The notes under the pieces are model-generated. The model was given only the letters and a program-made list of their open reading frames with translations. It was not told the origin of the DNA and did no database searches. DNA of 64,000 nt from positions 1-64,000 of IMG/VR virus record IMGVR_UViG_3300024346_009227, one strand, 5' to 3'. The position numbers were made by a program, and so were the translations under genes. Shown piece by piece: positions 988 to 60,714 of this stretch (positions within the stretch are counted from its first letter, which is position 1; the number at the start of each line of letters is the position of its first letter). This DNA is from a virus.

Positions 988-2188
988 AAAAATTAGAATT
1001 TGCAGGTGCTGTAAAAATAAAAATCTTATAAAAATATTAGACCTTGGTATGCATCCTTTAGCAAATTCATATGTTTCTAAACCTCAAAAAACAAAAAAGT
1101 TTCCATTGATATTAATGCTATGCAATAAATGTTTTCATTTACAGATAAGTGTTTCTGTTAATCCAAATTTGTTATTTAAAAACTATCTTTATGTAAGTGG
1201 AACAACAAAAACATTAAATGATTACTTTGAATATTTTGCTAAATTTTCTATTGATAGATTTAAAAAAATAAATAAAAAAAATCCATTGAATGTGTTAGAT
1301 ATAGCTTGTAATGATGGAAGTCAGTTAGATAAATTTAAAAATAAAAAAATTAATACTTTTGGTATAGATCCGGCTGAAAATTTGTATGTTTTATCTTCTA
1401 AAAAACACAATGTTTTTTGTGGATATATTGAAAACTATAACCCTAAAAAAAAATTCGACATTATCGTTGCACAAAATGTATTTGCTCATGTTGATAATCT
1501 TGATGTTTTTTTGTCAAAAGTAAAACAATCTATGAGCAAAGAAAGCGTTTTTTATATTCAAACATCTCAAGCAAATATGTTGTTAAACAATGAATTTGAC
1601 ACTATTTATCATGAGCATTTGTCGTTTTTTAATTCTTTATCTATGAAGAAAGTATTAAAAAAACACAACTTATTTTTAAATAATGTTTTTAAAACTTCTG
1701 TTCATGGAACATCTTATGTGTTTGAAATAAGCATGTCTAATAAAATTGGAAATATATCTGATGTATTAGTGCAAGAACTTGAAAGTGGGCTTTTTGATGT
1801 TGATTTTTATATTAAGTATTCAAAAAAATGTTTATTGTGTGTGCAAAGTTTAAAGAAAAAAATTGATGCTTATAAGAAAAAAAAATATAAAATTATAGGT
1901 TATGGGGCAGCAGCAAAAGGAAATACACTTTTAAATTTTTCAAATATAAGTTTGGATTATATTGTTGATGATAATCCTTTAAAACAAGGAATGTATACTC
2001 CAGGAATGAATATTCCTATTGTGTCAATTGAAAAACTAAATGAATTTTCTAAAAAAGATAAGATTTGTTTTGTTCCTCTTGCTTGGAATTTTTACGAAGA
2101 AATAAAAAACAGAATTAGAAAATTTAGAAATTTTAAATCTGACAAAATAATTAAATACTTTCCGTTTTATAGTGAAGAAATATTGTGA
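980..2188 (+). CDS. NDP-hexose C-methyltransferase (C3-methyltransferase type)
   Basis: N-terminal CRCC and CNKC Zn site, LDIACNDG SAM motif, YHEH, GYGAAAKGNTLL; ATG 980 follows AGGGAG. Confidence 0.88.
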   Translation: MFKKIRICRCCKNKNLIKILDLGMHPLANSYVSKPQKTKKFPLILMLCNKCFHLQISVSVNPNLLFKNYLYVSGTTKTLNDYFEYFAKFSIDRFKKINKKNPLNVLDIACNDGSQLDKFKNKKINTFGIDPAENLYVLSSKKHNVFCGYIENYNPKKKFDIIVAQNVFAHVDNLDVFLSKVKQSMSKESVFYIQTSQANMLLNNEFDTIYHEHLSFFNSLSMKKVLKKHNLFLNNVFKTSVHGTSYVFEISMSNKIGNISDVLVQELESGLFDVDFYIKYSKKCLLCVQSLKKKIDAYKKKKYKIIGYGAAAKGNTLLNFSNISLDYIVDDNPLKQGMYTPGMNIPIVSIEKLNEFSKKDKICFVPLAWNFYEEIKNRIRKFRNFKSDKIIKYFPFYSEEIL

Positions 2189-2994
2189 AAAAAACAATAA
2201 TTTCTCATTTTTATAATGAAGAGTACTTACTGCCTTGGTGGTTAAGCCATCATAAAAAACATTTTGATTATGGAATAATGATTGATTACAATTCAACGGA
2301 TAAATCTAAAGAAATAATTGAAGAAATTTGTCCTCATTGGAAAATTGTAAAAACAAAAAATGAATATTTTGATAGTGATATTATAGATAGAGAAGTTGAA
2401 GAATACGAAAAAAAAATTGATGGTTGGAGAATATGTTTAAATACTACAGAGTTTTTAGTTGGAGATTATTCTGTATTAGATAAATCTTTAAAAAAACAAT
2501 TGTATTTAGGAAATTTAGTTTTTGTTGAAGATAAAATTACTAGTTTAAATAAAAACATTCCAATTTTTTATCAAGTTTCAAATGCTTATAATCAAGTAAA
2601 TGATGCATCTGGAATTTTACATACTGGCAGTAGATCATTTAGATCAATTCACAATTATCCTATAAAATATTCTAATAATGGTGGAAGACATTTTTCTGGT
2701 CCAATATCAACAAATGATTTAAGAATTTTTTATTATGGTTATTTAATTAGCATAGAAGAAATAATATTAAGAAAATTACAAATACAAAGTAAAATTTCTG
2801 ATATAGAATACAATAGGTATAAACATTTAAACCACCCAAATATTACTAATAGAGAAGATTTTTTAAATAAAATAAAAAGATATCAATTACCAAATTGTAT
2901 AGACATGAGTAACGAAATTAATAGGCTAGTTGAATTAGATAATTTAAAGGAAAATTATTGTGAAAAAAACTTTGATCTCACATTTTTACAATGA
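2185..2994 (+). CDS. GT-A glycosyltransferase (GT2-like), paralog 1
   Basis: YNEEYLLPWWLSHH, IDYNSTD, GGRH; GTG start overlaps the upstream stop. Confidence 0.75.
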   Translation: MKKTIISHFYNEEYLLPWWLSHHKKHFDYGIMIDYNSTDKSKEIIEEICPHWKIVKTKNEYFDSDIIDREVEEYEKKIDGWRICLNTTEFLVGDYSVLDKSLKKQLYLGNLVFVEDKITSLNKNIPIFYQVSNAYNQVNDASGILHTGSRSFRSIHNYPIKYSNNGGRHFSGPISTNDLRIFYYGYLISIEEIILRKLQIQSKISDIEYNRYKHLNHPNITNREDFLNKIKRYQLPNCIDMSNEINRLVELDNLKENYCEKNFDLTFLQ

Positions 2995-3742
2995 AGAATA
3001 TTTGTTACCTTGGTGGTTAAAACACCATAAAAAATATTTTGATTATGGAATAATGATTGATTATCATTCAACAGACAATTCTAAAAAAATAATTGAAGAA
3101 ATTTGTCCTCATTGGACAATTGTTACTTCAAATAACAAAGATTTTGATGCCCCAAAAGTAGATTGGGAAGTTATGGAAATAGAATCTTTAATTTCTGGAT
3201 ATAAAATTGTTTTAAATACTACAGAATTTTTAATTTCTACAAAAGAAGATTGGGAAAAAGATTTTTTATTTGAAAAATACGACCAAATTTTAATTCCTTC
3301 TAGCGTAATGGTAGACGATGATTTGAATCAAAATGAATTAGACTACAATATACCTTTGCACAAACAAAAAAATAAAGGTATGGATATACACATTAAACCT
3401 AAATTTTATTCATTAAGAAATTCAAGATCTATGCATAAAGTAAAAGTAAATTATTCTGCTGGAAGACATTTTTATTCATATAATACACAAGAAGATCTTA
3501 TTAAAACATTTGATGACGGAACAACATCAACTATTTTCAATATTTTATGGTTTGGTTTTTCTCCATACAATGAAAAACTTTTAAAAAGAAGATTGCAAAT
3601 CCAGAATGTAGCACCTAGAAGCCCTTCTTTTGGAGGACATCATTTTACAGATAAAGAAGGTTTAGATATTCAATACGCTAATCTTTTGCCAAATTCTAGC
3701 GAAATTAATTTTTTAAAAAAACAAAATATTTTAAGTTATTAA
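2960..3742 (+). CDS. GT-A glycosyltransferase (GT2-like), paralog 2
   Basis: N-terminal ~55 aa nearly identical to 2185..2994; IDYHSTD, AGRH. Confidence 0.75.
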   Translation: MKKTLISHFYNEEYLLPWWLKHHKKYFDYGIMIDYHSTDNSKKIIEEICPHWTIVTSNNKDFDAPKVDWEVMEIESLISGYKIVLNTTEFLISTKEDWEKDFLFEKYDQILIPSSVMVDDDLNQNELDYNIPLHKQKNKGMDIHIKPKFYSLRNSRSMHKVKVNYSAGRHFYSYNTQEDLIKTFDDGTTSTIFNILWFGFSPYNEKLLKRRLQIQNVAPRSPSFGGHHFTDKEGLDIQYANLLPNSSEINFLKKQNILSY

Positions 3743-4326
3743 TTGTGAGTGCCTATTAACTTATCAGAATAAACAATAAGAAAATTATTTTCCAAACAAT
3801 ATTTTTCAATATCTTTTATTGCAAAAAAATCAGCATCATACGACATTCTCCATTCTATTTTTTTAGCAATATCAGTTTTAACCATAACATTTAATGTGTC
3901 TATGTTTCCACCAGTAATATTTTGATATGTTGGTATAATTCCGCAAGCATTGTGCTTTATTTTGTGTACTAACATTCCATATTGATCATTAATCAATTCA
4001 TTATTTGAAAATGACAAATAATCTTTTTCAATAGTGTTATCGTCATCTAACCATATTGTGTAGTCACCTGTGCATTTTGAAATCATAGCGTTTCTTTGAG
4101 CATGACCCCAATTTTTAAATTCTTTTTTTTCTATAAAATTGTAAATAAAACGATTGTCGTTCATGTTTAATACACATTGTTTATCTTCTTCGCTATATCC
4201 ATCTGAACAAATTATAACTTCATAATTTTCATAGTCTTGATCCTTAACGCTGTTCATTGCACGATTAAGTAATTCTGTTCTTTTATATGTTGGGATTATT
4301 ATTGAAAATTTTTTGTTTTGATGCAT
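3739..4326 (-). CDS. Glycosyltransferase family 2
   Basis: SIIIPTYKR, SDG, RNA, LDDDN (DxD). Confidence 0.88.
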   Translation of the reverse strand: MHQNKKFSIIIPTYKRTELLNRAMNSVKDQDYENYEVIICSDGYSEEDKQCVLNMNDNRFIYNFIEKKEFKNWGHAQRNAMISKCTGDYTIWLDDDNTIEKDYLSFSNNELINDQYGMLVHKIKHNACGIIPTYQNITGGNIDTLNVMVKTDIAKKIEWRMSYDADFFAIKDIEKYCLENNFLIVYSDKLIGTHN

Positions 4327-4366
4327 TTTAAAACCCTTTGATTATTGTTTTAAATATAAAATTGTC

Positions 4367-4383
4367 ATATAATATATAACACC
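4367..4383 (-). promoter_or_regulatory. Candidate phage promoter motif GGTGTTATATATTAT
   Basis: Minus-strand motif copy about 40 nt upstream of the minus-strand GT2 start at 4326. Confidence 0.45.
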
Positions 4384-4405
4384 ATTTTATTTTTACGAGA
4401 TAATT

Positions 4406-4687
4406 ATGAAATATCTTTATGAAGTATGGTTAAAAACAAATAATAAAAAAAATAAATATAAAGCATCTATTAGCAAGGAAGGTGGTTCATGTATACCTTT
4501 ATGTGCATCATCAGATGAAGAAGCGATTTACATTTTACAAAAAGCATTTTTGTGTTTTGATTCAAGACCAATAAAAAACAAAAAGAAAATAGGTAATTAC
4601 AGATTGAAAGATGGTTGTTCAAAGTATATATTTGTTTTGTGTAGTGAGAATTTAGAAAGCTATATACAAGCTTATGATCATAAGTAA
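4406..4687 (+). CDS. Hypothetical protein
   Basis: 93-aa ORF with GAGA upstream; no recognisable motif. Confidence 0.55.
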   Translation: MKYLYEVWLKTNNKKNKYKASISKEGGSCIPLCASSDEEAIYILQKAFLCFDSRPIKNKKKIGNYRLKDGCSKYIFVLCSENLESYIQAYDHK

Positions 4688-4975
4688 CTGCGTTATCAAA
4701 TTCAATAACGGTTCTTTCGCAGTTCTTTCCCCGAAGTAATCATAACACCAGGGTATGGACCCAAAGACTGCCATAGAGTAGCCAAACTCTTAACAGGTGG
4801 CACGAAAAGTTTAATTAAGAATCAACACTAAGATTGGAGTGACCCCTTCTCCACTTAGACCTGATAGAGCAAAAGCAAAAAATTCTTAATTAATGTCTTG
4901 TTTGGTAGAGTTTATAGCACACCGAAGGCAAACAAAAGAACTCTGATGCTATGCTATCAGGGTAAAGAAGGGGTA
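4686..4975 (-). ncRNA. Candidate structured non-coding RNA of unknown family
   Basis: GC-richer intergenic block with many complementary segments (4842-4850/4966-4974, 4860-4867/4954-4961, 4811-4822/4882-4893); G-U extensions favour the minus strand. Confidence 0.45.
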
Positions 4976-4981
4976 TTTGAA

Positions 4982-5335
4982 ATGAGATTTAAAGCAGATA
5001 TAACACTTAAAAAGTGGGGCAGCGAAGAAACAATAGCAAACGAATCTTTTAGAGACACATGTTTGAAAATATTAAAAATGGACATACTGAAACAAACAAG
5101 CTGGCATTACCATGCCCAAAAAGAGTCTTATTTTTACATATTCTCTGGAGAGGTGTCCATACACATATCTGATGGAGATAACTTAAATTTAGCCCATATA
5201 GAGCTTTTAAAACAAGGCGATTGTATTTTTGTAAAAGCAAATCAAAGACACATGATAACAGCGATGAAAGAGAGTGTATTACTTGAGTCATCCAGCTTTG
5301 ATGATCCACTAGACAAAACTATAGTTCCTCACTAG
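4982..5335 (+). CDS. Cupin-domain protein (sugar-isomerase-like)
   Basis: KKWGSEE, TSWHYH-x-x-KE-x-FY-x-x-SG, QRHMI cupin motifs; ATG 4982 after AGAAGGGG. Confidence 0.8.
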   Translation: MRFKADITLKKWGSEETIANESFRDTCLKILKMDILKQTSWHYHAQKESYFYIFSGEVSIHISDGDNLNLAHIELLKQGDCIFVKANQRHMITAMKESVLLESSSFDDPLDKTIVPH

Positions 5336-5597
5336 CTATGTCGCAAAATATTTGAACTACGCTTTTTTCTATAAAACCAAATGAATTTAGATGCCCAACA
5401 TCTTTTCCAACTATTAAGGTTATTTCCATAAATTCAGATTCAGATATATATCCAGTCGAATAAGCTTTTCTTATTATTTCTTTAAACAAAATAAATTGAG
5501 AATTAGTAAAATCTATGGTTTTTAAATTGAGAAAATCAATTTTGCCTTTAAAATAAGCCTTGAGTGTTTGTTGGCTTTCCTTTATTCTATTTTTCAT
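5319..5597 (-). CDS. Hypothetical protein
   Basis: 92-aa ORF fills the gap, GAGG RBS upstream on the minus strand. Confidence 0.6.
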   Translation of the reverse strand: MKNRIKESQQTLKAYFKGKIDFLNLKTIDFTNSQFILFKEIIRKAYSTGYISESEFMEITLIVGKDVGHLNSFGFIEKSVVQIFCDIASEEL

Positions 5598-5622
5598 ACT
5601 AACCTCTTATATCGAGAACATT

Positions 5623-6114
5623 ATGGCAAAGAAAAACGAACCAGAGATAAATGTAAAGTTATTAATAAAGAGAAATCTCTTAGATGTAGTAGAAATAGAG
5701 AAGGCATCATGTTACACAAATGATCCAGACTTTGGCAAAATTCAAAATGATTCTGCTTGGTCCTCATCTTCTTTTACAAGTTTTGTAAGAAAAAAGAATA
5801 CATTCTCTTATGTTATTTATGAAAATTCTAAAATAGTTGGCTTTATTTTGATTGAAAATGCAATTAATGAAACAATAATAGAAAAATTAGTTGTGCATCC
5901 AAAGAATAGAAGAAATGGATATGGAACTAAAATGATTGAATTTTTAATTCAAAAATCATTTAAACCAATAATTTCTGCTTATTGCAGAGAAGATGACAAT
6001 GATAGTATCAAATTCTACAGCAGCAAAAAATTTAAATCAAAATTACAAAAAAAATATTTTATTAATGATATAGATGCTGTAAAATTTACTATGGAGATTG
6101 ACGATGAAAAATAA
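5623..6114 (+). CDS. GNAT N-acetyltransferase, RimI-like
   Basis: LVVHPKNRRNGYG acetyl-CoA motif, SIKFYSSKKF; likely start MAKK. Confidence 0.85.
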   Translation: MAKKNEPEINVKLLIKRNLLDVVEIEKASCYTNDPDFGKIQNDSAWSSSSFTSFVRKKNTFSYVIYENSKIVGFILIENAINETIIEKLVVHPKNRRNGYGTKMIEFLIQKSFKPIISAYCREDDNDSIKFYSSKKFKSKLQKKYFINDIDAVKFTMEIDDEK

Positions 6115-6274
6115 AGTTTTAGTAGACTGTTTGGGGTGGTGCAATAAAAAATTTTTAAGTCATAATCCATCAACAAACAGAATATGCAAAAAGTGCAAAG
6201 AAAAAATGAACAACAAGAAAAATGAAATGGGCAAAAATTACTTTTACGAAAAAAAAATAGAGATAAATGAATAA
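6104..6274 (+). CDS. Small Cys4 zinc-finger-like protein (56 aa, not in ORF track)
   Basis: MKNKVLVDCLGWC...RICKKC; overlaps both neighbours and fills the gap exactly. Confidence 0.65.
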   Translation: MKNKVLVDCLGWCNKKFLSHNPSTNRICKKCKEKMNNKKNEMGKNYFYEKKIEINE

Positions 6275-7307
6275 ACCAAAAGTTGCACTTATAACGCCAT
6301 CATTGGGTATGGGTGGTGCAGAAAGATGGATTGTAACTCTAGCAAAATTCTTTAATGAAGTTGATCCTTATTTAATTTTAAATCTAAGTGGCCAAAGCGA
6401 TTCAATTTTATTAAATGAAATACCAAGCACAACAAGAATTATATCTAATTTTTATTCAAGACCAGAAAAAATTATAGATGCTTTAAGTGATGCTGATGTA
6501 GTTATATCTTGGTGTTTTAATTTAAATTTAATCTTAAAAGATAAGTTAAAATGTCCAACAATAGATGTTTCTCACAGTGATCCACAATGGAAAGATCATA
6601 AATCTTTAATTGATCACACATCAAAAAATTCAAAATATCATGTTGGAGTAAGCAAGATTGCTGCTTCATCATATAAAAAAAATAATTCAGATGTAATATA
6701 TAACGGAATAGATACAAAAAGACTTAAAAAATCAAAAGGTAGAATTGAACAAAGAAAAGAATGGGGTTGTGAAAATAACAAAGTGGTTATTTTTTTAAGC
6801 AGATTATCAGAAGAAAAAAATCCAAAAATATTATTAGAATGTTCAGAATTATTTGATGAAAGCTGGAAATTTTTATTTGTTGATATTGGTTCATTAAAAC
6901 AACATTTTAGTTCAATAAAAAAATCTAACATTAAGATTATAAAAAAAACAAAAGATATTGGTGATTATTATTCTGGTGCAGATGTAGTGGTTCTTCCTTC
7001 AGATATAGAAGGAATGCCATTAGTTTTATTAGAATCTTGGTTTTGTGCAGTTCCTGTTGTAACAACAAGATATGCTTCTTATTTAGAATTAGAAGATATG
7101 CATGGAGAATTATGTTTATCGACACAAGTAAGACCAACAGCAATTGAATTTTCAAATAAAATACAACAAGCTTTTTATGAAGGAAGAAATTCTAAAAGAG
7201 TTGTTTTAGCCAAATCAGTCGTTGAAAATAATTACACACATGAAACAATGATTAAAAATTGGGAAAAGTATATTTTTTTAAAAATAAAAGAATTCCATGA
7301 TAGTTAA
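6267..7307 (+). CDS. Glycosyltransferase family 4 (GT-B)
   Basis: MGGAER, IYNGID, SRLSEEKN, EGMPLVLLE (Ex7E). Confidence 0.9.
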   Translation: MNKPKVALITPSLGMGGAERWIVTLAKFFNEVDPYLILNLSGQSDSILLNEIPSTTRIISNFYSRPEKIIDALSDADVVISWCFNLNLILKDKLKCPTIDVSHSDPQWKDHKSLIDHTSKNSKYHVGVSKIAASSYKKNNSDVIYNGIDTKRLKKSKGRIEQRKEWGCENNKVVIFLSRLSEEKNPKILLECSELFDESWKFLFVDIGSLKQHFSSIKKSNIKIIKKTKDIGDYYSGADVVVLPSDIEGMPLVLLESWFCAVPVVTTRYASYLELEDMHGELCLSTQVRPTAIEFSNKIQQAFYEGRNSKRVVLAKSVVENNYTHETMIKNWEKYIFLKIKEFHDS

Positions 7308-7908
7308 TCATATAAAAAAATGGGTATATATTGGACCTCCTAAAACTGGAAGCACAGCTATCTCGTATGTTTTAACAGATGGAAAATACAACACAAATGA
7401 ATTTATTCAAGATTCAAATGTTAATTTTAAAGGTATAGAAATAAATGGTCAACATACACCTTGGCCTCCTAATAAATTAGGCTCTAAATATGATGATTAC
7501 AATGTTTTTATAAGTGTAAGAAATCCTTTTTCTAGAATAGTTTCTCTTTACGATCATTGGAAATATGGGCAAAATTACGAAAACGAATTATTTTTTAAAG
7601 AAAAAACACTTGAAGAATTTATGCATCTTGTTTTAGATAAAAATCTTTCTAATGATGGTTTTTTTCATACTACAATAACAGATTGGGTTACTAGATATGA
7701 TTTTTTTATAAAACAAGAAAGTCTAGAAAATGATTTAAAGATGCTGAATATTCACTCTATCGATTTTAATGTTCCACTAATAAATGAAAAATTAGGATCG
7801 ACAAAACACTGGAAAGAAGAACATAATAAAAAAACAATTGAAATGACAATTGAATGGGCAGAAAAAGATTTTTATAATTTTGAATATAGTAAGGATATTA
7901 ATGTTTAA
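7297..7908 (+). CDS. Sulfotransferase family protein
   Basis: PPKTGSTAI 5'-PSB and VRNPFSRIVSLY 3'-PB motifs. Confidence 0.82.
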   Translation: MIVNHIKKWVYIGPPKTGSTAISYVLTDGKYNTNEFIQDSNVNFKGIEINGQHTPWPPNKLGSKYDDYNVFISVRNPFSRIVSLYDHWKYGQNYENELFFKEKTLEEFMHLVLDKNLSNDGFFHTTITDWVTRYDFFIKQESLENDLKMLNIHSIDFNVPLINEKLGSTKHWKEEHNKKTIEMTIEWAEKDFYNFEYSKDINV

Positions 7909-8617
7909 GTATTTTTTTGTTTTTTTAAAGTATGATCGTTCTGGCAAATGGTGGACTATTCGTTGTGAACACATTAAAGATAATCCATCATGTATAGGTT
8001 GTGGCACAAAAAAAGATGTTCAAGTTCACCACATTATACCAGTTGGAGTTGATGCATCTAAAGAATTATTAAGAAGCAACTTATGCACCCTTTGCAAGTA
8101 TTGTCACTTTGTTTTTGGGCATTTGCACAACTATAAAAATTACAATCCAGAAGTAATTAGGGATTGCCAAGAGCATTACAAAAGAGTAAAACAATTTAGA
8201 GTTAAGACTTTTCAAAGACCTATTTCTTTATGGAGGACTATTATGGCTAAGTTTTTTGGTTCTATTGCTTTGGTTTTCTTAGGTTATTCAATCTATGTTA
8301 GTCATATGTATGTAGTAGAAACTAATAAAAATTCAACAGTTAAGGAGCTTTTAGCTGCTGAAAATAGACTTTTAAAAGATGAAATTTATGCAGACAGAAG
8401 TAAACCAACTTATGAAAATGGTTATAGAGATGCTATTTTAAGGGCTGGTTCACCAACTGGTTCTGGTTCATATCGTGATGGTTGGGAAGCTTGTGCAAAA
8501 CTTTATGCAGATGGTTCATGGACAAGTGGCTACCATACAGCACTAGAACAATTTGGCTGGAAAAATGAATCAACAGCATTCAAAAATTCAAACCCACAAG
8601 CTGTTTCTATGAAATAA
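7901..8617 (+). CDS. HNH endonuclease domain in frame with a membrane-anchored protein (internal start at 8243)
   Basis: CIGC, VHHIIP, NLCTLCKYCH; then GGAGG-ATG 8243 followed by a hydrophobic segment. Confidence 0.7.
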   Translation: MFKYFFVFLKYDRSGKWWTIRCEHIKDNPSCIGCGTKKDVQVHHIIPVGVDASKELLRSNLCTLCKYCHFVFGHLHNYKNYNPEVIRDCQEHYKRVKQFRVKTFQRPISLWRTIMAKFFGSIALVFLGYSIYVSHMYVVETNKNSTVKELLAAENRLLKDEIYADRSKPTYENGYRDAILRAGSPTGSGSYRDGWEACAKLYADGSWTSGYHTALEQFGWKNESTAFKNSNPQAVSMK

Positions 8618-8640
8618 TCTTTAATGATTTACCCTCATAC

Positions 8641-8653
8641 TGTGTATTAGTAT
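8641..8653 (+). promoter_or_regulatory. Candidate phage promoter motif TGTGTATTAGTAT
   Basis: Variant of the recurrent motif, immediately upstream of 8652/8664. Confidence 0.35.
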
Positions 8654-9050
8654 GGGGGTAATCATGAAAAAGAAATCACACAACAATAAAACTTTTGGTG
8701 AAATTTCTGGAAAATATTGGGCTTCTTTAATCAAGAATGCAAAAAAAAGAAATATAAAAATAACGGCAACAATAGAAGATGCTTGGGAAATATTTTTAGA
8801 ACAAAACAGAAAATGTTTTTATACTGGTTTAAAAATAACCCACAAAAAATATTTAAAAAGAATTAATAATAAAGATATATATTCTTTGGGAACAGCATCG
8901 CTAGATAGAAAAAATAGCGATCTTGGATACACTAAAGAAAATATACAATGGGTCCATAAAGATGTCAACTATATGAAGATGAGTTTGAATGAAAGATATT
9001 TTGTGAAGCTTTGCAAACTTATAGCTAGGAGATTTTCAAAATGCCTTTAA
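8652..9050 (+). CDS. HNH-like (beta-beta-alpha-metal) endonuclease
   Basis: CFYTG, ASLDRKNSDLGYTKENIQWVHKDVNYMK. Confidence 0.75.
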   Translation: MGVIMKKKSHNNKTFGEISGKYWASLIKNAKKRNIKITATIEDAWEIFLEQNRKCFYTGLKITHKKYLKRINNKDIYSLGTASLDRKNSDLGYTKENIQWVHKDVNYMKMSLNERYFVKLCKLIARRFSKCL

Positions 9051-9529
9051 AAAATTGCTCTGAAAATGGAAAAGATGGTTGGAAATGGGGGGATGAAGGA
9101 AAATGTTATTTTGGAAAAGATGGTAAAAAACAAGCCATAAGACAAGGAATTTCTATTGAAGGTCCAGAAAAATTTTCTAAAATAATGAAATCGCAATCAG
9201 ATGAAGATCTTTATTCACAACTTTCAAGTGATGAAAAAGTATTGGCTGATTTATTGTTATCTTTAGCAGATAAAGTTGGTCCAATTGATAAAAGCGATGG
9301 TATTTGGGTTGGTTATGAAAATGCGGACAACAATAAAGTAAAAGACATTGGAGTTAAATGCGGTAACTGTGCTTTGCATAAATCAGAAAATTCATGCAAG
9401 ATAATTAGCCAACCAATAGAACTTGATGGTGCTTGCAGATTTGCAGTAATTCCAGATGGGTATGTTAGTTCTGCTAAAGTAAAAAAACATATAGAAGAGT
9501 ACTTAAATGAAAATAATTCTAAACAATAA
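9041..9529 (+). CDS. Protein with HiPIP-like four-Cys domain
   Basis: CGNC-x8-C-x12-C with I-x-x-x-G-x-C ending, preceded by VGY. Confidence 0.55.
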   Translation: MPLKNCSENGKDGWKWGDEGKCYFGKDGKKQAIRQGISIEGPEKFSKIMKSQSDEDLYSQLSSDEKVLADLLLSLADKVGPIDKSDGIWVGYENADNNKVKDIGVKCGNCALHKSENSCKIISQPIELDGACRFAVIPDGYVSSAKVKKHIEEYLNENNSKQ

Positions 9530-10001
9530 CGAGTTGTTAAAAAAAAAGTGTTTGAATGTAGATTTAAAAACTGGATTTAAAGTTGCCAAAAGAATAGGCA
9601 TGTTTTTAAATGCACTAAAGAAAAAAACAAAGAATAAAATAGTTGGTTTAGCAGCAAATCAAGTTGGCGTAGATGCCTGTGTATGTATAGTTTTAAAAAA
9701 CAACAAGCCATTTGTTTTAATAAATCCAAAAATAATTTCTTTTTCTGATGTAAGAATTAGAAATAAAGAACAGTGTTTAAGTTATCCAGACATAGAATTA
9801 GATATATATAGACATATGTGGATTGAAGTTTCTTGCGATAATCATAAGGAAACAATTTTTTTTGGAAATATTTCTCTTGAAAGTGACACAACCAAAAATC
9901 TTGAAAGTGCTGTTGCTCAACATGAAATATGTCATTTAAATGGATTGACCTTTCATGATTTTCAATGGAACAATGCACCAACACCAGCGGAGTGGAATTA
10001 A
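9507..10001 (+). CDS. def: Peptide deformylase
   Basis: GLAANQVG, LINP, EQCLS, QHEICHLNG (HExxH). Confidence 0.9.
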   Translation: MKIILNNNELLKKKCLNVDLKTGFKVAKRIGMFLNALKKKTKNKIVGLAANQVGVDACVCIVLKNNKPFVLINPKIISFSDVRIRNKEQCLSYPDIELDIYRHMWIEVSCDNHKETIFFGNISLESDTTKNLESAVAQHEICHLNGLTFHDFQWNNAPTPAEWN

Positions 10002-10002
10002 C

Positions 10003-10272
10003 ATGCAAACTCATTACACAAAAAACAAGTTGATTGGAAACGAAAGATTTTCTAGCGAGCTAGATAGTTTGATATATCAAAATATACCTTCTGATTATTT
10101 AATACCAGAAGAAATGCTTCTCGAAAAAATATACAAAGATATTCTTAAAGAATTTTCTCATAATAAATATTCATCTAGAGAAATAAGTGACAGTTTAAAA
10201 AACATGATCCAAAAAAAACAAGTAAAAGAACTTTATGGAACAAAACTATCCAAATACATTTCTATACAGTAG
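10003..10272 (+). CDS. Hypothetical protein
   Basis: ORF following def; no clear motif. Confidence 0.55.
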   Translation: MQTHYTKNKLIGNERFSSELDSLIYQNIPSDYLIPEEMLLEKIYKDILKEFSHNKYSSREISDSLKNMIQKKQVKELYGTKLSKYISIQ

Positions 10273-10279
10273 AGGATTC

Positions 10280-10313
10280 AAAAACATAATTATAATAATA
10301 TTATGTTTTTTGA
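10280..10313 (+). terminator. AT-rich inverted repeat, possible terminator or operator
   Basis: aaaaacataat (10280-10290) pairs with attatgttttt (10300-10310), just after the TAG of the upstream ORF. Confidence 0.35.
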
Positions 10314-10393
10314 TAATGTATGCAATATTTAGCTATATACTTGTAGATTTAACGCACAACAACAGTTGTAAGTGCGTTGATACTATAGATTAA

Positions 10394-10408
10394 GGGGTAT
10401 TTAAGTAT
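10394..10408 (+). promoter_or_regulatory. Candidate phage promoter motif GGGGTATTTAAGTAT
   Basis: Variant of the recurrent motif about 30 nt upstream of ATG 10438. Confidence 0.35.
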
Positions 10409-10437
10409 GGGTTGATATTTCTCTTTGGAGATTTCCC

Positions 10438-10632
10438 ATGACAACTTATTTTGAGGTTTGGGGAGTGGTTCCAGGAGGAAAGAATAGGATTAAAATAGCT
10501 GAATATGAAGAAAAATACTGGCAAAGAGCAGAAAAAAAAGCTGCTTTTCTAGAAGAAAATGAGTATACAAAAATTGTAATTTATGAAAAAACAAGATCAA
10601 ATATTATTGATAGAGACAATCGTTTTCTGTAG
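10438..10632 (+). CDS. Hypothetical small protein
   Basis: 64-aa ORF with GGAG RBS. Confidence 0.6.
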   Translation: MTTYFEVWGVVPGGKNRIKIAEYEEKYWQRAEKKAAFLEENEYTKIVIYEKTRSNIIDRDNRFL

Positions 10633-10660
10633 TATGACTTAGGAACAAAAGGAGGAAAGA

Positions 10661-11731
10661 ATGAATATCAATTTATCTGCCCCAATCAATCAGCTTGGCT
10701 ATGGTGTTGTTGGAACAAATCTTCTTTTTGAACTTTCAAAAACGCACAATGTTTCTTTGTGGCCAATTGGTCCTATTGATTGCGAAGAAAAAGTAATTCC
10801 AATTGCTAAATCAAGTTTAAAAAATGCTGCATCATTTGATTATGATGCACCAAGCTTTAGACTTTGGCATCAATGGGATATGGGATTAAATGCTGGTCGT
10901 GGAAAAAAATACGGAATGACTTTTTTTGAAATGGACAACATAAAAGATAATGAAAAACACAACCTTAATTTTTTAGAAAAAATATTTGTGTGTTCTGATT
11001 GGGCCAAACAAATAATTGTTAAATCTGGAATAGATGAGTCTAAAGTAAAAGTAGTTAGACTTGGTGTTGATCAATCAATTTTCAAACAATGCGAACCAGA
11101 CAGCGTTAAAACAACCAGAATATTAAGTATAGGTAAATGGGAAATAAGAAAAGGGCACGATTTAATACTTGAAATATTAGAAAGAACATTTAGTGTTGAT
11201 GATGACTTTAAATTAATAATGTGTTGTTCTAATCCATTTCTTTCGCAAGAAGAACAAGATCAATGGATTTCATATTATGAAAATAGCAAGTTTTTTGACA
11301 AAATAGTTGTGTTAAAAAATAGATTAAAAACACAGAATGAGGTATATGACCTTATGAAAAAAAGCGATATAGGAATATTTCCTTATCGTGCAGAAGCTTG
11401 GAATTTAGAATTAGCAGAAATGCTATCCATAGGCAAAAACTGTATAGCCACAAACTACTCAGGACCAACTGAATATGGCATTGAATCTGGTTGTTATTTA
11501 ATTAATCCAGATGGAATGGAACCAGCTAATGATTCAAAATGGTTTGATGGAAGTGCTTCTTGGGCAAAACTCGAAGAAAACTACATAAATAATTTTTCTA
11601 ATCAATTAAAAGAATTGCATATTAAAAAACAAAATGATAATTTAAAAACAAATATTTCTGGAATAGAATTTTTTAAACAAAATACATGGGAAAGTTCTTG
11701 CGAAACAATAATTCGAGAAATATTACAATGA
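10661..11731 (+). CDS. Glycosyltransferase family 4 (GT-B)
   Basis: GYG, LGVD, GKWEIRKG, EAWNLELAE; AGGAGG RBS. Confidence 0.88.
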   Translation: MNINLSAPINQLGYGVVGTNLLFELSKTHNVSLWPIGPIDCEEKVIPIAKSSLKNAASFDYDAPSFRLWHQWDMGLNAGRGKKYGMTFFEMDNIKDNEKHNLNFLEKIFVCSDWAKQIIVKSGIDESKVKVVRLGVDQSIFKQCEPDSVKTTRILSIGKWEIRKGHDLILEILERTFSVDDDFKLIMCCSNPFLSQEEQDQWISYYENSKFFDKIVVLKNRLKTQNEVYDLMKKSDIGIFPYRAEAWNLELAEMLSIGKNCIATNYSGPTEYGIESGCYLINPDGMEPANDSKWFDGSASWAKLEENYINNFSNQLKELHIKKQNDNLKTNISGIEFFKQNTWESSCETIIREILQ

Positions 11732-14109: not shown

Positions 14110-14889
14110 ATGTTTAAAAAAACTTTGTTTTTTTTGTTGGTATTTTGCAATTTTACATTTGCAGAAAACTTTATTGTTCCAGAACAAAAAATTGTTGGAG
14201 CAGAAGTTCCTATTCCACTAGGTGAGCTTGTAGATTTATCTATAAGTCCAATTCAGTCTTCACCAAAGTTTTTAATTTCAACTACATATTCGTGGAAAGT
14301 TTTTGATGGGTATGCAGAAAAAAGAATTCGTAATTATGAAAATGGCGTTTTCTTTGGTTCTGGTATACAAGCAAAAAAACTTAAGGTTATTGTTGCAATA
14401 ACTCACTTGTATGTAGTTAAAGATAATGAAAAACTTTTAGAAGCAGCTACTAAAACTAACTTTATTTCAACAGATGTTTTTATTGGAGAGCCAGAACCTG
14501 ATACTCCACCAGAACCAGAAATTGAACCAGAATTTGGAGAATCAAAGTATGAACTTTCTAAATTTGTTTATGATGGCGTTAAAAATATTAAGTTATCAAA
14601 AACAGATAAAATAAAACAATCTACTGCTATTGCAGCATCTTTTGAAAGTATTGCTTCTGCTATTGCTGCTGGAGCTATAACAACACTTGAAGACATATTA
14701 AAGAAAACAGCCGAATCAAATAAGTTTGCACTAACTAAATCTGGTGGAGATAGAGCAAAATGGGAACCTTTATTTACAGAAATACAAGAAAAACTTTTTG
14801 ATCTATATAAAACTAGCAAGATGCAAACCAAAGAAGATTTTGCTGGTGCGTGGAGAGAAATATCTTCTGGACTCAAACTAGTAAAATAG
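14110..14889 (+). CDS. Secreted protein (signal peptide, beta domain, PEP linker, helical domain)
   Basis: MFKKTLFFLLVFCNFTFA signal-like N-terminus; EPEPDTPPEPEIEP linker. Confidence 0.7.
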   Translation: MFKKTLFFLLVFCNFTFAENFIVPEQKIVGAEVPIPLGELVDLSISPIQSSPKFLISTTYSWKVFDGYAEKRIRNYENGVFFGSGIQAKKLKVIVAITHLYVVKDNEKLLEAATKTNFISTDVFIGEPEPDTPPEPEIEPEFGESKYELSKFVYDGVKNIKLSKTDKIKQSTAIAASFESIASAIAAGAITTLEDILKKTAESNKFALTKSGGDRAKWEPLFTEIQEKLFDLYKTSKMQTKEDFAGAWREISSGLKLVK

Positions 14890-14896
14890 GTGAAAC

Positions 14897-15820
14897 ATGT
14901 CTGAATTATCAAAGGTTAATGGTTGGGCAGGAAAAGATAATCCTTCGCTTGTTGAAAGTGAATTCAATTTAATTAAAAATGATGGATCTTTTAGAGACTT
15001 TAATGTTTATGGTAAAAGCCAAGACACTAAAGGTAAAAAAATGATGTTGTATGAAGTTGTTCGCAAAGTTCTCGGTAAAGATACAGATAGTTACCCTCAA
15101 GAAATTGGTGACTGCGTAAGTTTTGGTGCTAAAAATGCAATTGAATATTTGATGGCTACTGAAAAACTTATGAAGGGCGATCACGAAAAATTTGAACCTA
15201 TATTTCCTCCGTATCTTTATGGCACAGGAAGAGTTTTAGTTGGTCGTGGACAGCTTAATGGTCAAGACGGATCTCTAGGGAGTTGGATGGCAGATGCTGT
15301 TATTAAATATGGCGTTCTTCGTAGTAATTTTGACGGTCTTCCTAAGTATGCTGGAAGCGTAGCTAAAAAATGGGGTGACACACCAGGACCAGATAAAAAG
15401 TTTATAGAGGAAGGTGCTAAACACCCAGTAAAATCTGCTGCTCAAATTAAAACTTGGGATCAATTAGTAGAGGCTATTGTGAATGGTTATCCTTGTACAA
15501 CTGCTAGTAATGTTGGCTACACGATGACACCAGCAAACGATGGTTTTCATCGCCAAACAGATAATTGGGGTCACCAGATGTGCTTCATAGGTGTTGATGA
15601 TAGAGCAGATGATCCATATGCTATTATCGTTAACAGTTGGGGCGATATTCATGGGGAGCTTAAAGATTTTAATACTGGCCAATCCCTGCCTCTTGCTACT
15701 CTTAGAGTTAGAAAGAAAGATGCTGAAAAACATCTTAGGGCTGGTGAAACTTTTGCATACAGCAATTTTGATGGGTTTAAAGAACAGTTAATAGATAAAA
15801 AGTTATTTATGCTTATATAG
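14897..15820 (+). CDS. Papain-like (C1) cysteine peptidase
   Basis: Q-x-x-GDCVSF (Cys), WGHQM (His), NSWG (Asn). Confidence 0.85.
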   Translation: MSELSKVNGWAGKDNPSLVESEFNLIKNDGSFRDFNVYGKSQDTKGKKMMLYEVVRKVLGKDTDSYPQEIGDCVSFGAKNAIEYLMATEKLMKGDHEKFEPIFPPYLYGTGRVLVGRGQLNGQDGSLGSWMADAVIKYGVLRSNFDGLPKYAGSVAKKWGDTPGPDKKFIEEGAKHPVKSAAQIKTWDQLVEAIVNGYPCTTASNVGYTMTPANDGFHRQTDNWGHQMCFIGVDDRADDPYAIIVNSWGDIHGELKDFNTGQSLPLATLRVRKKDAEKHLRAGETFAYSNFDGFKEQLIDKKLFMLI

Positions 15821-15829
15821 GATTTAAAA

Positions 15830-16300
15830 ATGTCTAAAAAAAAAGATGATAAACATTTAAAACAACAAATAGATTACAATGAATTTTTAAATTCAATTAA
15901 AGATTTAATCTTAAGCACTAACGCTTATAAAAATCAAAAATTAAAACAATTTTCTACAGCAAAAGAATCTTATGATGCCCCACAATCAGCAAGAAATAAT
16001 GCAAAAAAAGTCTTAGCTTGGAAAGAAAAGTATGGAAAAGAATGTAAAGGAATGACTGCTGTAGGTTGGGCAAGAGCAAGAGACTTGGCTGGAAATGCTA
16101 TGTTGTCTGCCGATACAGTAAAAAGAATGGCTCAATTCAATAGACATGGATCTAATTACGAAAAAGCAAAATCTAAACCAGAGTATAAAACTAAGCCTTG
16201 GACTATTCCAGCAGTAGTTGCATGGTTAGGATGGGGTGGAACATCTGGTATTGAATGGGCAATTAGAACAAGTCAATCCATTATAAAAAAGAAAAAATAA
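15830..16300 (+). CDS. Conserved-looking phage protein of unknown function
   Basis: GMTAVGWARARDLA, TVKRMAQFNRH, AWLGWGG pattern. Confidence 0.7.
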   Translation: MSKKKDDKHLKQQIDYNEFLNSIKDLILSTNAYKNQKLKQFSTAKESYDAPQSARNNAKKVLAWKEKYGKECKGMTAVGWARARDLAGNAMLSADTVKRMAQFNRHGSNYEKAKSKPEYKTKPWTIPAVVAWLGWGGTSGIEWAIRTSQSIIKKKK

Positions 16301-16303
16301 ATC

Positions 16304-16462
16304 ATGTTAAACATAATTCTTTTTTTGTTATTTAATCAAAATATATCTAAAGATCAATTCGCATTAATAGAAAAAGATTCTATTTCATTTTACAAATTAA
16401 TAAATGAAGTTAAGAAAAATACAAAACAAGAAGAGTGTTTTACTTGACGGAGAAAAAAATAA
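16304..16462 (+). CDS. Unannotated microprotein with in-frame TGA in a C-x-x-U context (47 aa, or 52 aa with readthrough)
   Basis: MLNIILFLLF...EECFT-TGA(16445)-RRKK-TAA(16460-16462); the TAA overlaps the next ATG. Confidence 0.55.
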
Positions 16463-16809
16463 TGCGGTCGCATAAAAAAATACAACAAATATTAGAAAAA
16501 TCAGAAACACTTAAAAAGTATGATGCTATTGGTATTATAACAATAATTATGATTGTTAGTCTTATATTTGAAGGTATAAAAATAATACAATATTGCAAAT
16601 CATCTAAAGTAACAGCCTTAATAATTAAGCGTGGTGGTCCTTTAGTTAGAATGTTTATTAGAAAAAATATTTACAACAAAATAATAAAAGCAAATGTTCC
16701 AGAAAATGATGCTAAAATAATATCTAACACAATAGTAGAAATGCTTCAATCTCTTTCTGTTGAAGAAATAGCTTCTATCTTGGAGTTAGCTTTTAATGAA
16801 AATAGTTAG
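16462..16809 (+). CDS. Membrane protein
   Basis: Start MRSHKK; hydrophobic segment AIGIITIIMIVSLIF. Confidence 0.7.
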   Translation: MRSHKKIQQILEKSETLKKYDAIGIITIIMIVSLIFEGIKIIQYCKSSKVTALIIKRGGPLVRMFIRKNIYNKIIKANVPENDAKIISNTIVEMLQSLSVEEIASILELAFNENS

Positions 16810-17683: not shown

Positions 17684-18436
17684 ATGAAAAATCCAAAAGT
17701 TAGTTGTTATTGTGCAACATATGGAAGAGTGAGTTTACTTGAAGAATCAGTACACAGTTTTTTAATTCAAGACTATGATGGCGAAAAAGAATTAATAATA
17801 TTAAATGATTTCTCAGATCAAACAATTTATTTTGATCACCCACAAATAAAAATATACAATTACAAAAAAAAAGAAAGCTTGTTAGGAAAAAAATTTAATG
17901 ATTGTGTAAAATATTGTACTGGAGAAATACTTTTTCCTTGGGAAGATGATGATATTTATCTTTCAAATAAAATATCTTTTTCTGTAAATAAAATGATTTT
18001 AAATAAAACAAAAATATTTCACACTAGAAATGCTTTTTATGAATTAAATGCCGAAAATATAATGAATGCACTTAATTATTTCCAAGCTGATTTATTGTAT
18101 CATACTAATTTATGTATTTATAAAGACGCTTTTGAAAAAGCAGGAGGTTATTATGAATACGATGGAATTGATTTAGATGTAATATCAATGAATAGATTTT
18201 TTGCATCAGAAAAATATGTTAGTGAAAAAATAGATATAAAAGATTTTTTTTATTTATACAGATTATCTACTACAAATAGTTATCATGCAACTTGGTTAAG
18301 TCATGGAAAAGAAGGTATTTCTAAAGAGGCAGAAAAATATATAGAGGGTTTAAGAAAAGACATAGTTTTAGGTGATTATTATTTAAATCCACATTGGAAA
18401 TATGATTACGAATTTTTTTGTAGGAAAATTCATTAA
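17684..18436 (+). CDS. Glycosyltransferase family 2
   Basis: VSCYCATYGR, QDY, LIILND, WEDDDIY. Confidence 0.85.
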   Translation: MKNPKVSCYCATYGRVSLLEESVHSFLIQDYDGEKELIILNDFSDQTIYFDHPQIKIYNYKKKESLLGKKFNDCVKYCTGEILFPWEDDDIYLSNKISFSVNKMILNKTKIFHTRNAFYELNAENIMNALNYFQADLLYHTNLCIYKDAFEKAGGYYEYDGIDLDVISMNRFFASEKYVSEKIDIKDFFYLYRLSTTNSYHATWLSHGKEGISKEAEKYIEGLRKDIVLGDYYLNPHWKYDYEFFCRKIH

Positions 18437-19200
18437 TCAATTAATTTTAATAATCCATGCTGTATATCATAAGTTTTATCTTTATTTTCTAACATCTGAA
18501 GCAAAAAAGCATTTATATCTAATTTTGTATTTCTAGTTTCTCCAATTCCACCCTTGTCACTAATTAAAAATTTAAAGTCTTCTGTCAAAACTGTTTTGTC
18601 TGGTGGATTAAAATGAAAATAAGAATTTATATAACTTTCATCATTTACTGGTGGTTCATAATTAATTTTTTTATCTTCTATTTGATATCCTCTTAATGTC
18701 TTGCAAAAATCTATAACCCTTTCTTTTGTACCACCAAAAAAAGCACCATAATAATAAGTATATTTTAACTTGCTATCTAAAGGAACATAGGATTTTCCAA
18801 TTTCATTTCTATCAAAACCTTTTCCATCAGATAACCAAGAACGATTTCCATAATGTTCCCCGCCCACAAGCTCACCTAAAAACCATGACTCATCAAAATC
18901 CTTATCTATATTTGTATCTGCATCAAAATAATAAATAAAATCACAATCTTCATTTTCAATTTTAATTATATTTTTAAATTTTGAATTAGTTCCTTCATGC
19001 CAATGATCATGCTTATCTTCTATATAATTGACATTTACATTAGGTAAATACATAGTTGGATCTAAATCAGAAAACAAATAAAATTTTATTTTAAATTTTC
19101 CTTTGTAATAATGATTAAATTTTTTAACAAATCTTAATCCAAGAATAAAATACGAATTTGTACAAACAATACAAATTGCAATTGTTTTTTCTTGATCCAT
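18433..19200 (-). CDS. Glycosyltransferase family 6 (ABO/alpha-1,3-Gal/GalNAc transferase-like)
   Basis: YYFDAD, YYYGAFFGG, NDESYINSYF match GT6 motifs; start MDQEK after GGAG. Confidence 0.82.
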   Translation of the reverse strand: MDQEKTIAICIVCTNSYFILGLRFVKKFNHYYKGKFKIKFYLFSDLDPTMYLPNVNVNYIEDKHDHWHEGTNSKFKNIIKIENEDCDFIYYFDADTNIDKDFDESWFLGELVGGEHYGNRSWLSDGKGFDRNEIGKSYVPLDSKLKYTYYYGAFFGGTKERVIDFCKTLRGYQIEDKKINYEPPVNDESYINSYFHFNPPDKTVLTEDFKFLISDKGGIGETRNTKLDINAFLLQMLENKDKTYDIQHGLLKLID

Positions 19201-19320
19201 AATTTTTCTCCATAAAAATTCATTGTGATTGATCAAGATATAATATCAACTTAAATAAAAATTACTATTGAAACATGTTTAAAAATAAGTAAGATTTTGA
19301 TCTGTCTTATCATTGTTATG

Positions 19321-21701: not shown

Positions 21702-21796
21702 TAAGAACTAGTTTAAAAAAACCAAAAAGATGTTCTTGTAGGATTAAAAAGCTTAAAAAGGAAAAAAGGAAAAATGTTAAAAAGAGGAACCCTTAA
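21698..21796 (+). CDS. Possible very basic 32-aa peptide
   Basis: ATGA overlap with the nrdJ stop; MIRTSLKKPKRCSCRIKKLKKEKRKNVKKRNP. Confidence 0.35.
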   Translation: MIRTSLKKPKRCSCRIKKLKKEKRKNVKKRNP

Positions 21797-22643
21797 GGCA
21801 TTTGGTGCTCCATTTAACATTGAGCATTCCAGTTGTTCAAACATTAAACCAACACTATTTGATTGGACAAAAAGCGATTCAGATATAGAAGTCTTTATAG
21901 ATTATTCTATAGTTCAAGAATCATTTTCTATTCCCAAAAAACAATCTGTGCTTAGAGTTGGTTGGTTATGTGAATCCGTTACAATTTATGGCAATCTTTA
22001 TGAATACATAAAATATAACTACAAGAATATCTTCTCTTCTTTGGATTTTGTTTTCACATCTGATAAGTATCTATTGTCATTAGATCCAAGATTTAAGTTT
22101 GCCTATTCTTGCAGCAATATACCTTGGACACCAAGAGAGTTTTGGGGCATTTACCCAAAAACAAAAAAATGTTCAATGATTTGTTCAAACAAAAAGTCTT
22201 GCAAAGAACATCTATACAGACACTCAGTTGCTCAAATATATAAAGATAAAGTCGATATTTATGGTGGTGCTTTTGATTCTCCGTACACTGGAGAAAAATA
22301 CGACAACTTTTATAAAAAAGAAAATGCTTTAAAAGACTACATGTTTTCTATAGTAATACAAAATAATTTTAATTCTTATTTTTTTGCCGAAATGCTAACT
22401 GATTGTTTTGCTTACGGAACGATACCAATATACTTAGGCAATCCAGAAATAGGAAACTTTTTTGATGAAAACGGAATAATACAATACAAAGGTGGATTTG
22501 ATATTGGTACTTTAAACGAAGAATTGTATAATAGTAAAATGAATGCAATCAATAACAATCTAGAAAGAATAAAATCAATGCCCATGTCTGATGACTATCT
22601 ATATGAACAATGCACTAATATATATAGAGGTAATTATGAATGA
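21774..22643 (+). CDS. GT10 (fucosyltransferase-like) glycosyltransferase
   Basis: SMICSNK, H-x-x-R, DIYG, KDYMFSIVIQN, YFFAEMLTDCF-x-x-GTIPIYLG. Confidence 0.75.
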   Translation: MLKRGTLKAFGAPFNIEHSSCSNIKPTLFDWTKSDSDIEVFIDYSIVQESFSIPKKQSVLRVGWLCESVTIYGNLYEYIKYNYKNIFSSLDFVFTSDKYLLSLDPRFKFAYSCSNIPWTPREFWGIYPKTKKCSMICSNKKSCKEHLYRHSVAQIYKDKVDIYGGAFDSPYTGEKYDNFYKKENALKDYMFSIVIQNNFNSYFFAEMLTDCFAYGTIPIYLGNPEIGNFFDENGIIQYKGGFDIGTLNEELYNSKMNAINNNLERIKSMPMSDDYLYEQCTNIYRGNYE

Positions 22644-33377: not shown

Positions 33378-33405
33378 TTAATTGAAAAAAATTTAAGGAT
33401 TGAAT

Positions 33406-35322: not shown

Positions 35323-35593
35323 TAACTCTCTTGAAATATCTATAATAAGTAAGTTAGTAGTTCAACAAACAGCCTTGTTAGATGCTTTGTCTGATTGTTC
35401 TTCATTAAAGAAAGATCTTGTTAAACAGGCTAATAAACTATTAAAGGCAATAACAATTCAAAATGGAGGCATATTAATTATAGATAAGGATTTTTTAGAT
35501 TCAGCAGAAGATGCAGAAGTTGAACTTAAAATACAGCAAAATGATGATGGATCAATAGAATTAACTATTAAAGGAGAAGAAGATGAAGAGTAA
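35315..35593 (+). CDS. Hypothetical acidic protein between the dnaE halves
   Basis: 92-aa ORF overlapping both neighbours. Confidence 0.65.
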   Translation: MNDNSLEISIISKLVVQQTALLDALSDCSSLKKDLVKQANKLLKAITIQNGGILIIDKDFLDSAEDAEVELKIQQNDDGSIELTIKGEEDEE

Positions 35594-36221: not shown

Positions 36222-36225
36222 TAAT

Positions 36226-60712: not shown

Positions 60713-60714
60713 GT

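Follow-up and report, generated by a model that had tools for sequence, protein, structure and literature searches.

A 47-codon gene of an uncultured lake phage, which ends in TGA with a Cys codon three codons before the stop and a short hairpin directly behind it, raises the question of whether its UGA is read as selenocysteine or terminates translation, and what the hairpin on the start codon of the next gene is for. The small gene lies on the plus strand at 16304–16447 of the window, by which we mean the whole 64-kb stretch of DNA analysed, the first part of an IMG/VR virus record of 116,974 bases. The original prediction saw here a phage selenoprotein with a C-x-x-U redox motif, a basic tail and a bacterial SECIS element. 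Its account of the letters is accurate: the ORF runs from ATG at 16304 to GAG (16433), TGT (16436), TTT, ACT and TGA (16445–16447), and continues in frame through CGG AGA AAA AAA to TAA (16460–16462). The selenoprotein claim itself survived only in part, in that the TGA and the hairpin form a real and selected unit, whereas the tests on Cys homologues, the basic tail and folding energy failed. The unit resembles a bacterial selenocysteine signal but does not pass the main tests of a selenoprotein, and it is most likely a translation-control junction.

Phage genome and setting of the locus

The phage record has a G+C content of ~33% and an estimated completeness of 78%, and its gene statistics rest on 110 crude gene calls. 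Coding density is 94% under table 11, and TGA is the stop of 21 of the 110 called genes, for the most part within ATGA-type overlaps; a code in which TGA is a general sense codon (tables 4/25) was rejected on these two counts. The genome encodes a class II ribonucleotide reductase, a DnaB-like helicase, a primase and ThyX together with many glycosyltransferases and sugar-modifying enzymes, and tRNA genes are absent from it. Near-identical DNA was confined to runs labelled freshwater, lake, estuary, marine or plain metagenome.

Several features of the gene content are observations in their own right. The DnaE-type DNA polymerase is split into two ORFs of 640 and 541 aa (window 33400–37851), which correspond to the two halves of one PHROG profile, and the small ORFs of 92 and 212 aa between them may be an inserted mobile element. 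The presumed structural region contains minus-strand ORFs of 1573, 4941 and 2845 codons, at window 53361–64000 and beyond (61878–76703 and 92158–100695 in G000), and most structural proteins of the phage lack a PHROG family. The glycosyltransferase set is unusually large and is accompanied by an NAD-dependent epimerase and a C-methyltransferase (window 88–11731, 17684–19236, 21774–22643, 38256–39755 and 41582–42577), which suggests that the phage builds or alters a sugar polymer. Directly upstream of the small gene (window 14110–16300) stand three genes for proteins of 259, 307 and 156 aa. The 259-aa protein has a signal-peptide-like start, the 307-aa protein shows a weak, below-threshold match to the papain family, and the domain of the 156-aa protein occurs in other phages within or beside portal, capsid or prohead-protease genes.

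The small gene, its relatives and the next gene

The small protein comprises a short hydrophobic N-terminus, with a hydrophobic stretch of only about 10 residues, a conserved S-K-E/D-Q-F-x-L-I-E core and a C-terminal C-F-T. Relatives were found through the 156-aa upstream protein, 121 of them in viral contigs, and 80 loci were retained; the next gene was also present in 33 of these, and the small ORF gave a tblastn match in 25. Searches based on an alignment of next-gene sequences added the viral contig L103 and the metagenome contigs L118, L121, L122 and L125, while the next gene was not found in the genome contigs searched. Across 33 related loci the homologues of the small protein are 47–63 aa long and share the N-terminus and the core, with a variable middle and one Cys near the end. 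Pairwise comparison of seven 47-codon forms gave dN/dS values of 0.04–0.50 at dS 0.24–0.94, and because this indicates purifying selection the 47-aa ORF is a genuine protein-coding gene. A profile search returned 62 database proteins at E ≤ 0.01. The Cys codon, TGT at 16436–16438 on the plus strand, encodes a residue that is invariant in alignment A2; both TGT and TGC are found among relatives, and in L121/L122 the Cys has moved to six codons before the TGA.

The next gene (16462–16809, plus strand) encodes 115 aa with an N-terminal helix, a hydrophobic helix (about 22–42), an invariant Cys45 and a C-terminal four-helix domain. Pfam and PHROG searches gave no family over threshold for it, and there was no PDB fold match at E ≤ 0.001; its AlphaFold model has a mean pLDDT of 67.7.

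Other coding arrangements across the junction were considered and rejected. A start of the next gene further upstream, at an [AG]TG overlapping the Cys codon, is contradicted by CTG in L006 and by the different frame at 16- or 15-nt spacing. A minus-strand ORF across the junction stays open for 1–45 codons depending on the lineage and is ATG-TGA in L034/L118, and fusion of the two genes by a −1 or +1 frameshift does not agree with a frame relation that varies among lineages.

Two rearrangements of the locus were also recorded. On a 7.5-kb contig (L018:3119–3333) an internal deletion joins the N-terminal half of the small ORF to the frame of the next gene in one fused ORF, which is either a natural variant or an assembly error. 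In addition, the module of 156-aa gene, small ORF and next gene occurs twice, in diverged form and about 146 kb apart, on one contig of 206 kb (L026/L032) and one of 221 kb (L031/L044); such contigs may result from the joining of two related phages in assembly or from a true duplication.

The invariant TGA, the ribosome-binding site and the start-codon hairpin

The TGA at 16445–16447 (plus strand) is the least variable part of the small gene's end. It is present in 34 of 34 sequences, namely the window and 33 loci, all of which read TG[TC]-N6-TGA, and in 8 of 8 further loci that are partly the same contigs under other names; its columns are invariant in alignment A3. The expectation that this codon would never be TAA or TAG is thus borne out in every locus with DNA. 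The codons ahead of it vary at third positions (TGT/TGC, TTT/TTA/TTC, ACT/ACC/ACA/CCT), and the stop of the next gene itself, read over 38 of the TGA loci, is TAG in 13, TAA in 16 and TGA in 9. The codon preference of the phage genome is A-ending, and no TGA stop occurs at the 34 short same-strand junctions of this genome (−1 to +25 nt; crude calls). Since the neighbour's stop varies, synonymous sites are near saturation, A-ending codons are preferred and TGA is missing from comparable junctions, the G of the small gene's TGA is under selection. Contigs from four sequencing runs carry no evidential weight in this respect, with none of the 40 listed differences out of 172 falling at 16445–16485.

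The in-frame continuation CGG AGA AAA AAA TAA (16448–16462, plus strand) ends in a TAA that overlaps the next ATG. TAATG overlaps recur at five other junctions, confirming that this form of overlap is used elsewhere in the genome. The idea of a conserved basic tail found no such confirmation. Among the 34 sequences the tails read RRKK (8), RRRK (11), WRKK (5), RRR (2) and R (8), with K in L103; they are 1–4 codons long, and their sequence follows the Shine-Dalgarno purines and an A-rich spacer. The Shine-Dalgarno site of the next gene is GGAG at 16449–16452 (plus strand), 9 nt before the ATG at 16462, and it is this site that supplies the seemingly GC-rich tail codons CGG AGA. Shine-Dalgarno motifs precede 67 of the 110 called genes, against a background of 15% in random 17-mers. 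Lineages differ in the base that follows the UGA (C, T or A), the spacing from UGA to ATG is 15–17 nt across lineages, and in L026/L028 the second stop lies 10 nt ahead of the ATG. Elsewhere in the genome, TAG stands 7–11 nt before the next ATG at many short junctions and overlaps the Shine-Dalgarno site (TAGGTG, TAGGA; window 14889–14897, 15820–15830 and similar), so that stop-codon choice in this genome is set partly by the ribosome-binding site.

The start codon of the next gene is itself the first element of an inverted repeat, ATGCG-GT-CGCAT, which spans 16462–16473 on the plus strand and can form five pairs. Its apical G (16467) and T (16468) stand at +23 and +24 counted from the U of UGA. 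The same positions hold the ATGC-GGTC-GCAT hairpin that had been described with its loop 18 nt behind the UGA, and the remark that its codons are unusual was also correct: in the crude gene calls CGG accounts for 14 of 1277 Arg codons (1.1%) and TCG for 114 of 2902 Ser codons (3.9%).

Within this single genome, the pair of TGA and hairpin is not beyond chance. The hairpin has a fold energy of −3.0 kcal/mol (z = −0.72 against shuffles; consensus −2.86), and the two strands of G000 together have 20 hairpins with arms of 5 bp and a GT tip, as against 21 in shuffles; only the one in the window has a TGA 15–17 nt upstream, where our own chance estimate is about one. The unit rises above chance because it is conserved in relatives. 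The invariant columns of alignment A3 are the TGA, the ATG, the apical G and T and the CAT, which gives the motif ATGYR-GT-YRCAT. Pair 4/9 is C-G, or U-A in L034/L118, and pair 5/8 is G-C, or A-U in L028 and L121/L122. Pairing is kept in 90 of 90 cells over the five pairs, two of which show double changes (5 cells), with no one-sided changes; the covariation score was reached by 0 of 500 shuffles, and slid controls were 0–59% paired. As only three sequence states exist, the number of independent changes in the hairpin is small (two or three).

The coding sequence of the next gene points in the same direction. Residues 2–3 of its protein change (R/W/Q, S/L) while the pairing stays, and the rare codons CGG and TCG are retained in lineages other than those with double changes. 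The third base varies in 21 of the 22 invariant-residue codons (18 representatives), and as the only exception, His4 CAT, lies within the hairpin, selection there acts on nucleotides. Collectively, selection at the nucleotide level maintains the UGA, the spacing and the hairpin, and the unit is real; the downstream hairpin of the original prediction persists in relatives through compensatory changes, with its GU tip invariant. Larger or different elements were rejected: RNAalifold keeps the hairpin alone and a 71-nt fold has z = −0.45, which speaks against a longer RNA structure, and an intrinsic terminator is contradicted by the lack of a U-run after the hairpin on either transcript and by unconserved flanks. 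Against Rfam, the window gave no match at gathering score, and 16200–16700 gave none even at E ≤ 10.

Selenocysteine signal or translational control

If the host decoded the UGA as selenocysteine, SelB would bind the GU-tipped hairpin and the protein would end ...C-F-T-U-R-R-K-K; alternatively, SelB occupancy would report selenium status and gate the start codon. Nearly all selenoproteins have Cys homologues, according to the available text of a review of 2026 (PMC13188914), and the original prediction had called for TGA or TGY (Cys) at this site among relatives. Of the 62 database homologues, 57 were read, at the protein level, the TGA counts given above coming from loci with DNA. Forty-seven end directly after C-x-x and seven after C-x-x-G-F-R, and the remainder are a Tyr form, a frameshifted protein (P0026) and one without the Cys (P0038). 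Cys at the UGA site occurs in 0 of these 57 and in 0 of 3 further distant proteins (P0063, P0065 and P0066). The sole sense-codon variant, P0014, carries Tyr (C-F-T-Y-R-I-R-K) and comes from a 578-bp contig. An exhaustive profile search of 1.84 billion representatives found 11 proteins, none with Cys at the UGA position; the new ones end in C-L-S-G-F-R, C-V-T and C-I-S-G-F-R, alongside one spurious 1657-aa match. The C-x-x-U motif itself stood in most lineages, in which the Cys lies three codons upstream, but is lost in a whole subfamily with C-x-x-G-F-R-TGA, comprising L121/L122, 7 database proteins, P0063 and P0066. The DNA of L121/L122 reads TGT TTG CCT GGA TTT AGG TGA AGA TAA and, set against its nearest relatives, is best aligned with a 9-nt insertion after the Cys codon, an arrangement that preserves the TGA and the 17 nt from it to the hairpin ATG but not C-x-x-U.

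The bSECIS model, as set out in the available text of the review, allows a loop of 3–9 nt and an upper stem of 4–16 bp, asks for a G among the first two loop positions with G or U after it and for 16–37 nt from UGA to loop, and sets an MFE limit of ≤ −7.5 kcal/mol (PMC13188914). With a 4-nt loop and a 4-bp stem, the minimum allowed, the phage hairpin lies within the size limits of that text; its loop, GGUC or, in L028/L121/L122, AGUU, with the middle G-U invariant, obeys the G-then-G/U rule; and its distance from the UGA, 18 nt in the window and 17 and 16 in other lineages, is at the low end of the range. Loop positions 22/25 co-vary from G-C to A-U, fitting the N1-N2 loop pair of the model as described there (PMC13188914). 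The hairpin agrees with this model in loop, upper stem, apical G and spacing but not in stability, −3.0 kcal/mol missing the limit.

The likeness is closest to the bSECIS of E. coli fdhF, whose fetched sequence is TGA CAC GGC CCA TCG GTT GCA GGT CTG CAC C. In both elements the loop GGUC occupies 22–25 and the pairs are 18–21/26–29 (U of UGA = 1), and the two invariant tip bases of the phage are G23 and U24, which the available part of PMC8659212 names, with U17, as SelB-specific bases. The phage hairpin differs in having no bulged U17, which in the E. coli type stands five pairs below the GU tip, position 17 being A or C, and neither pairs 15–16/30–31 nor a lower stem, since A-rich flanks on both sides do not continue the helix; moreover, its UGA stands 1–4 codons from the end of the ORF and the hairpin is the next gene's start site. 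Fourmy et al. 2002 reportedly showed that SelB reads a GpU exposed by a Watson-Crick pair within the tetraloop, and the 5/8 covariation of the phage hairpin would fit such recognition. A SECIS-like element in the E. coli selAB 5' leader is likewise said to let SelB repress translation (Thanbichler and Boeck 2002). The phage unit would share with that leader a SelB-type hairpin that sits at a translation start, not within a selenoprotein gene, and acts on downstream initiation, but in the phage an ORF ending in UGA precedes the hairpin, the genes have no link to selenium metabolism and SelB binding is only putative.

On the side of the decoding machinery, tRNA-Sec and the SelB wing domain were absent from 3 of 3 related phage records searched (73–78% complete). 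The phage has no close relative in culture and gave no DNA match among cultured phages, and its DnaE is at most 33% identical to that of any phage record. The 156-aa upstream protein matches scattered phages, the epimerase is 42–47% identical to proteins of many phyla, and an Atlas search with the ribonucleotide reductase returned viral RNR clusters only. Comparison of 20 kb of phage DNA with 401 Pelagibacterales found only host-type dnaE (31–37% at the protein level) in 1 genome. None of 201 sampled Pelagibacterales, the obvious candidates for a low-GC lake host, and none of 5 genomes reached through loci had SelB over the curated cut-off. SelB is common in some orders, being over the cut-off in 80 of 301 sampled genomes of the order of G002 (78 of 299 without the unpublished G232 and G411); in the five small-genome SelB-positive Burkholderiales examined, the selB locus has a G+C content of 47–59%, compared with 33% in the phage. 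A Sec-competent host is thus no more than a possibility. A limited literature search found no paper on a phage selenoprotein, and the words 'phage' and 'virus' do not occur in the available main text of the 2026 review (PMC13188914).

The ordinary reading, which we hold with moderate confidence, takes the UGA as a genuine stop and, together with the Shine-Dalgarno site and the hairpin on the start codon, as part of one unit for translational control or coupling of the next gene and its 115-aa membrane-type protein. Under it, the UGA of the small ORF would act as a true stop, and the 14 nt behind it would carry the next gene's Shine-Dalgarno site. The AUG of the next gene would form the 5' arm of a five-pair, GU-tipped RNA hairpin and so be held in structure, which would be opened by ribosomes finishing the small gene 15–17 nt upstream or bound by a protein that recognises the GU tip. 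We infer the control mechanism and the reason for keeping UGA as the stop; the reading as a whole is supported by purifying selection on the small ORF, by a standard GGAG at normal spacing, by tails that track the Shine-Dalgarno site and spacer and by the selection on hairpin nucleotides, as well as by the missing Cys homologues, a hairpin too weak for the bSECIS model and the lack of an Rfam match and of a phage tRNA-Sec or SelB. In the MS2 coat protein-replicase operator, a start codon lies in a small hairpin bound by a phage protein. The phage unit likewise has a short AUG hairpin with conserved, specific unpaired bases and compensatory stem changes, but it belongs to a DNA phage, is preceded by an invariant UGA at a fixed distance and would have a putative binder. 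Against the ordinary reading, it gives no reason for an invariant TGA, given a neighbour whose stop is free to change and short junctions that never use TGA. Neither a GU tip nor the fdhF register would be required of just any hairpin on a start codon, −3 kcal/mol could hardly block initiation by itself in the absence of a bound protein, and the protein that would bind the GU tip is putative only.

The invariant stop is accounted for directly if the UGA is kept as the leakiest stop. UGA readthrough is used by phage Q-beta for its coat/A1 protein, and here, too, a conserved UGA, not UAA, ends a phage gene with an in-frame continuation, but this continuation is just 1–4 codons long and unconserved, so that any role would lie in coupling rather than in a longer protein. 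A few readthrough ribosomes would travel 1–4 codons to a TAA or TAG near the AUG, melt the hairpin and reinitiate, and their rate would set the dose of the next protein; the suggestion in the original prediction that events at the UGA tune the next gene's translation thus stays a serious rival. Such coupling would require only a near-cognate tRNA, with no selenium or special host machinery, and would explain why an in-frame second stop always follows within 1–4 codons, overlapping the ATG in most lineages, as well as the fixed 15–17 nt spacing and the start codon in the hairpin. The changing base after the UGA shows, however, that a weak-termination context is not kept, the invariant GU tip is left unexplained, the strong Shine-Dalgarno site between stop and start allows independent initiation, and the distant second stop of L026/L028 does not fit; we regard readthrough coupling as possible but unlikely. 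The hairpin could instead be read in double-stranded DNA, with ATGYR-GT-YRCAT as a near-palindromic binding site, operator or iteron-like, in which covariation keeps the half-sites symmetric. All five arm positions stay complementary, including the centre-adjacent pair, which in RNA would leave a 2-nt loop, and an unrelated 32%-GC phage contig (L213) carries the identical 12-mer in three direct copies, 42 and 33 nt apart and each with an A-run behind it, in AT-rich intergenic DNA. This match may be due to chance, our own estimate from pattern probability and collection size being tens of chance matches for the 17-mer pattern, and four other matches are in GC-rich DNA of unrelated origin. On its coding strand the 117-kb record has a single copy of the motif, and the motif always sits exactly on the start codon; its centre is always G-T, never making a perfect palindrome, and its orientation is always the same, so that a strand-specific (RNA) reading is favoured. 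The TGA is not explained by a DNA site, which we consider improbable.

The repeats of L213 deserve mention on their own account. At L213:5327–5418, three direct copies of ATGCGGTCGCAT plus an A-run are followed by a fourth look-alike palindrome, ATACGTCCGTAT, and adjoin a long A/T-only stretch; they look like iterons at an origin or an operator array.

Selenocysteine decoding or SelB binding would explain the TGA that is never TAA or TAG, the Cys of most lineages, the loop and stem in fdhF register and the identity of the two invariant loop bases with the SelB determinants G23 and U24 in the available part of PMC8659212. Against it stand the lack of Cys at the UGA site in the 57 and the 3 further proteins, Tyr as the only sense-codon variant, the C-x-x-G-F-R subfamily, a tail accounted for by the Shine-Dalgarno site, the insufficient folding energy and reduced stem, and the findings on SelB in the phage records and in possible hosts. 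We judge it very unlikely.

If the ordinary reading of stop and start-codon hairpin holds, the locus is a further small element of translational control where two phage genes meet, and the TGA-hairpin junction has its main use as a well-documented look-alike, one for which selenoprotein predictors should make no call. What it leaves unexplained is a stop frozen as UGA while nearby synonymous sites are saturated, and a hairpin that copies the SelB-contact bases and the fdhF register. Were the selenocysteine or SelB reading true, the phage would make a mini selenopeptide (…C-F-T-U-basic tail) or gate a membrane protein by SelB occupancy, and it would carry a stripped-down, five-pair SECIS that doubles as a start-site hairpin, with a second regulatory job. 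With such a minimal SECIS, selenocysteine decoding would reach into a family of abundant lake phages.
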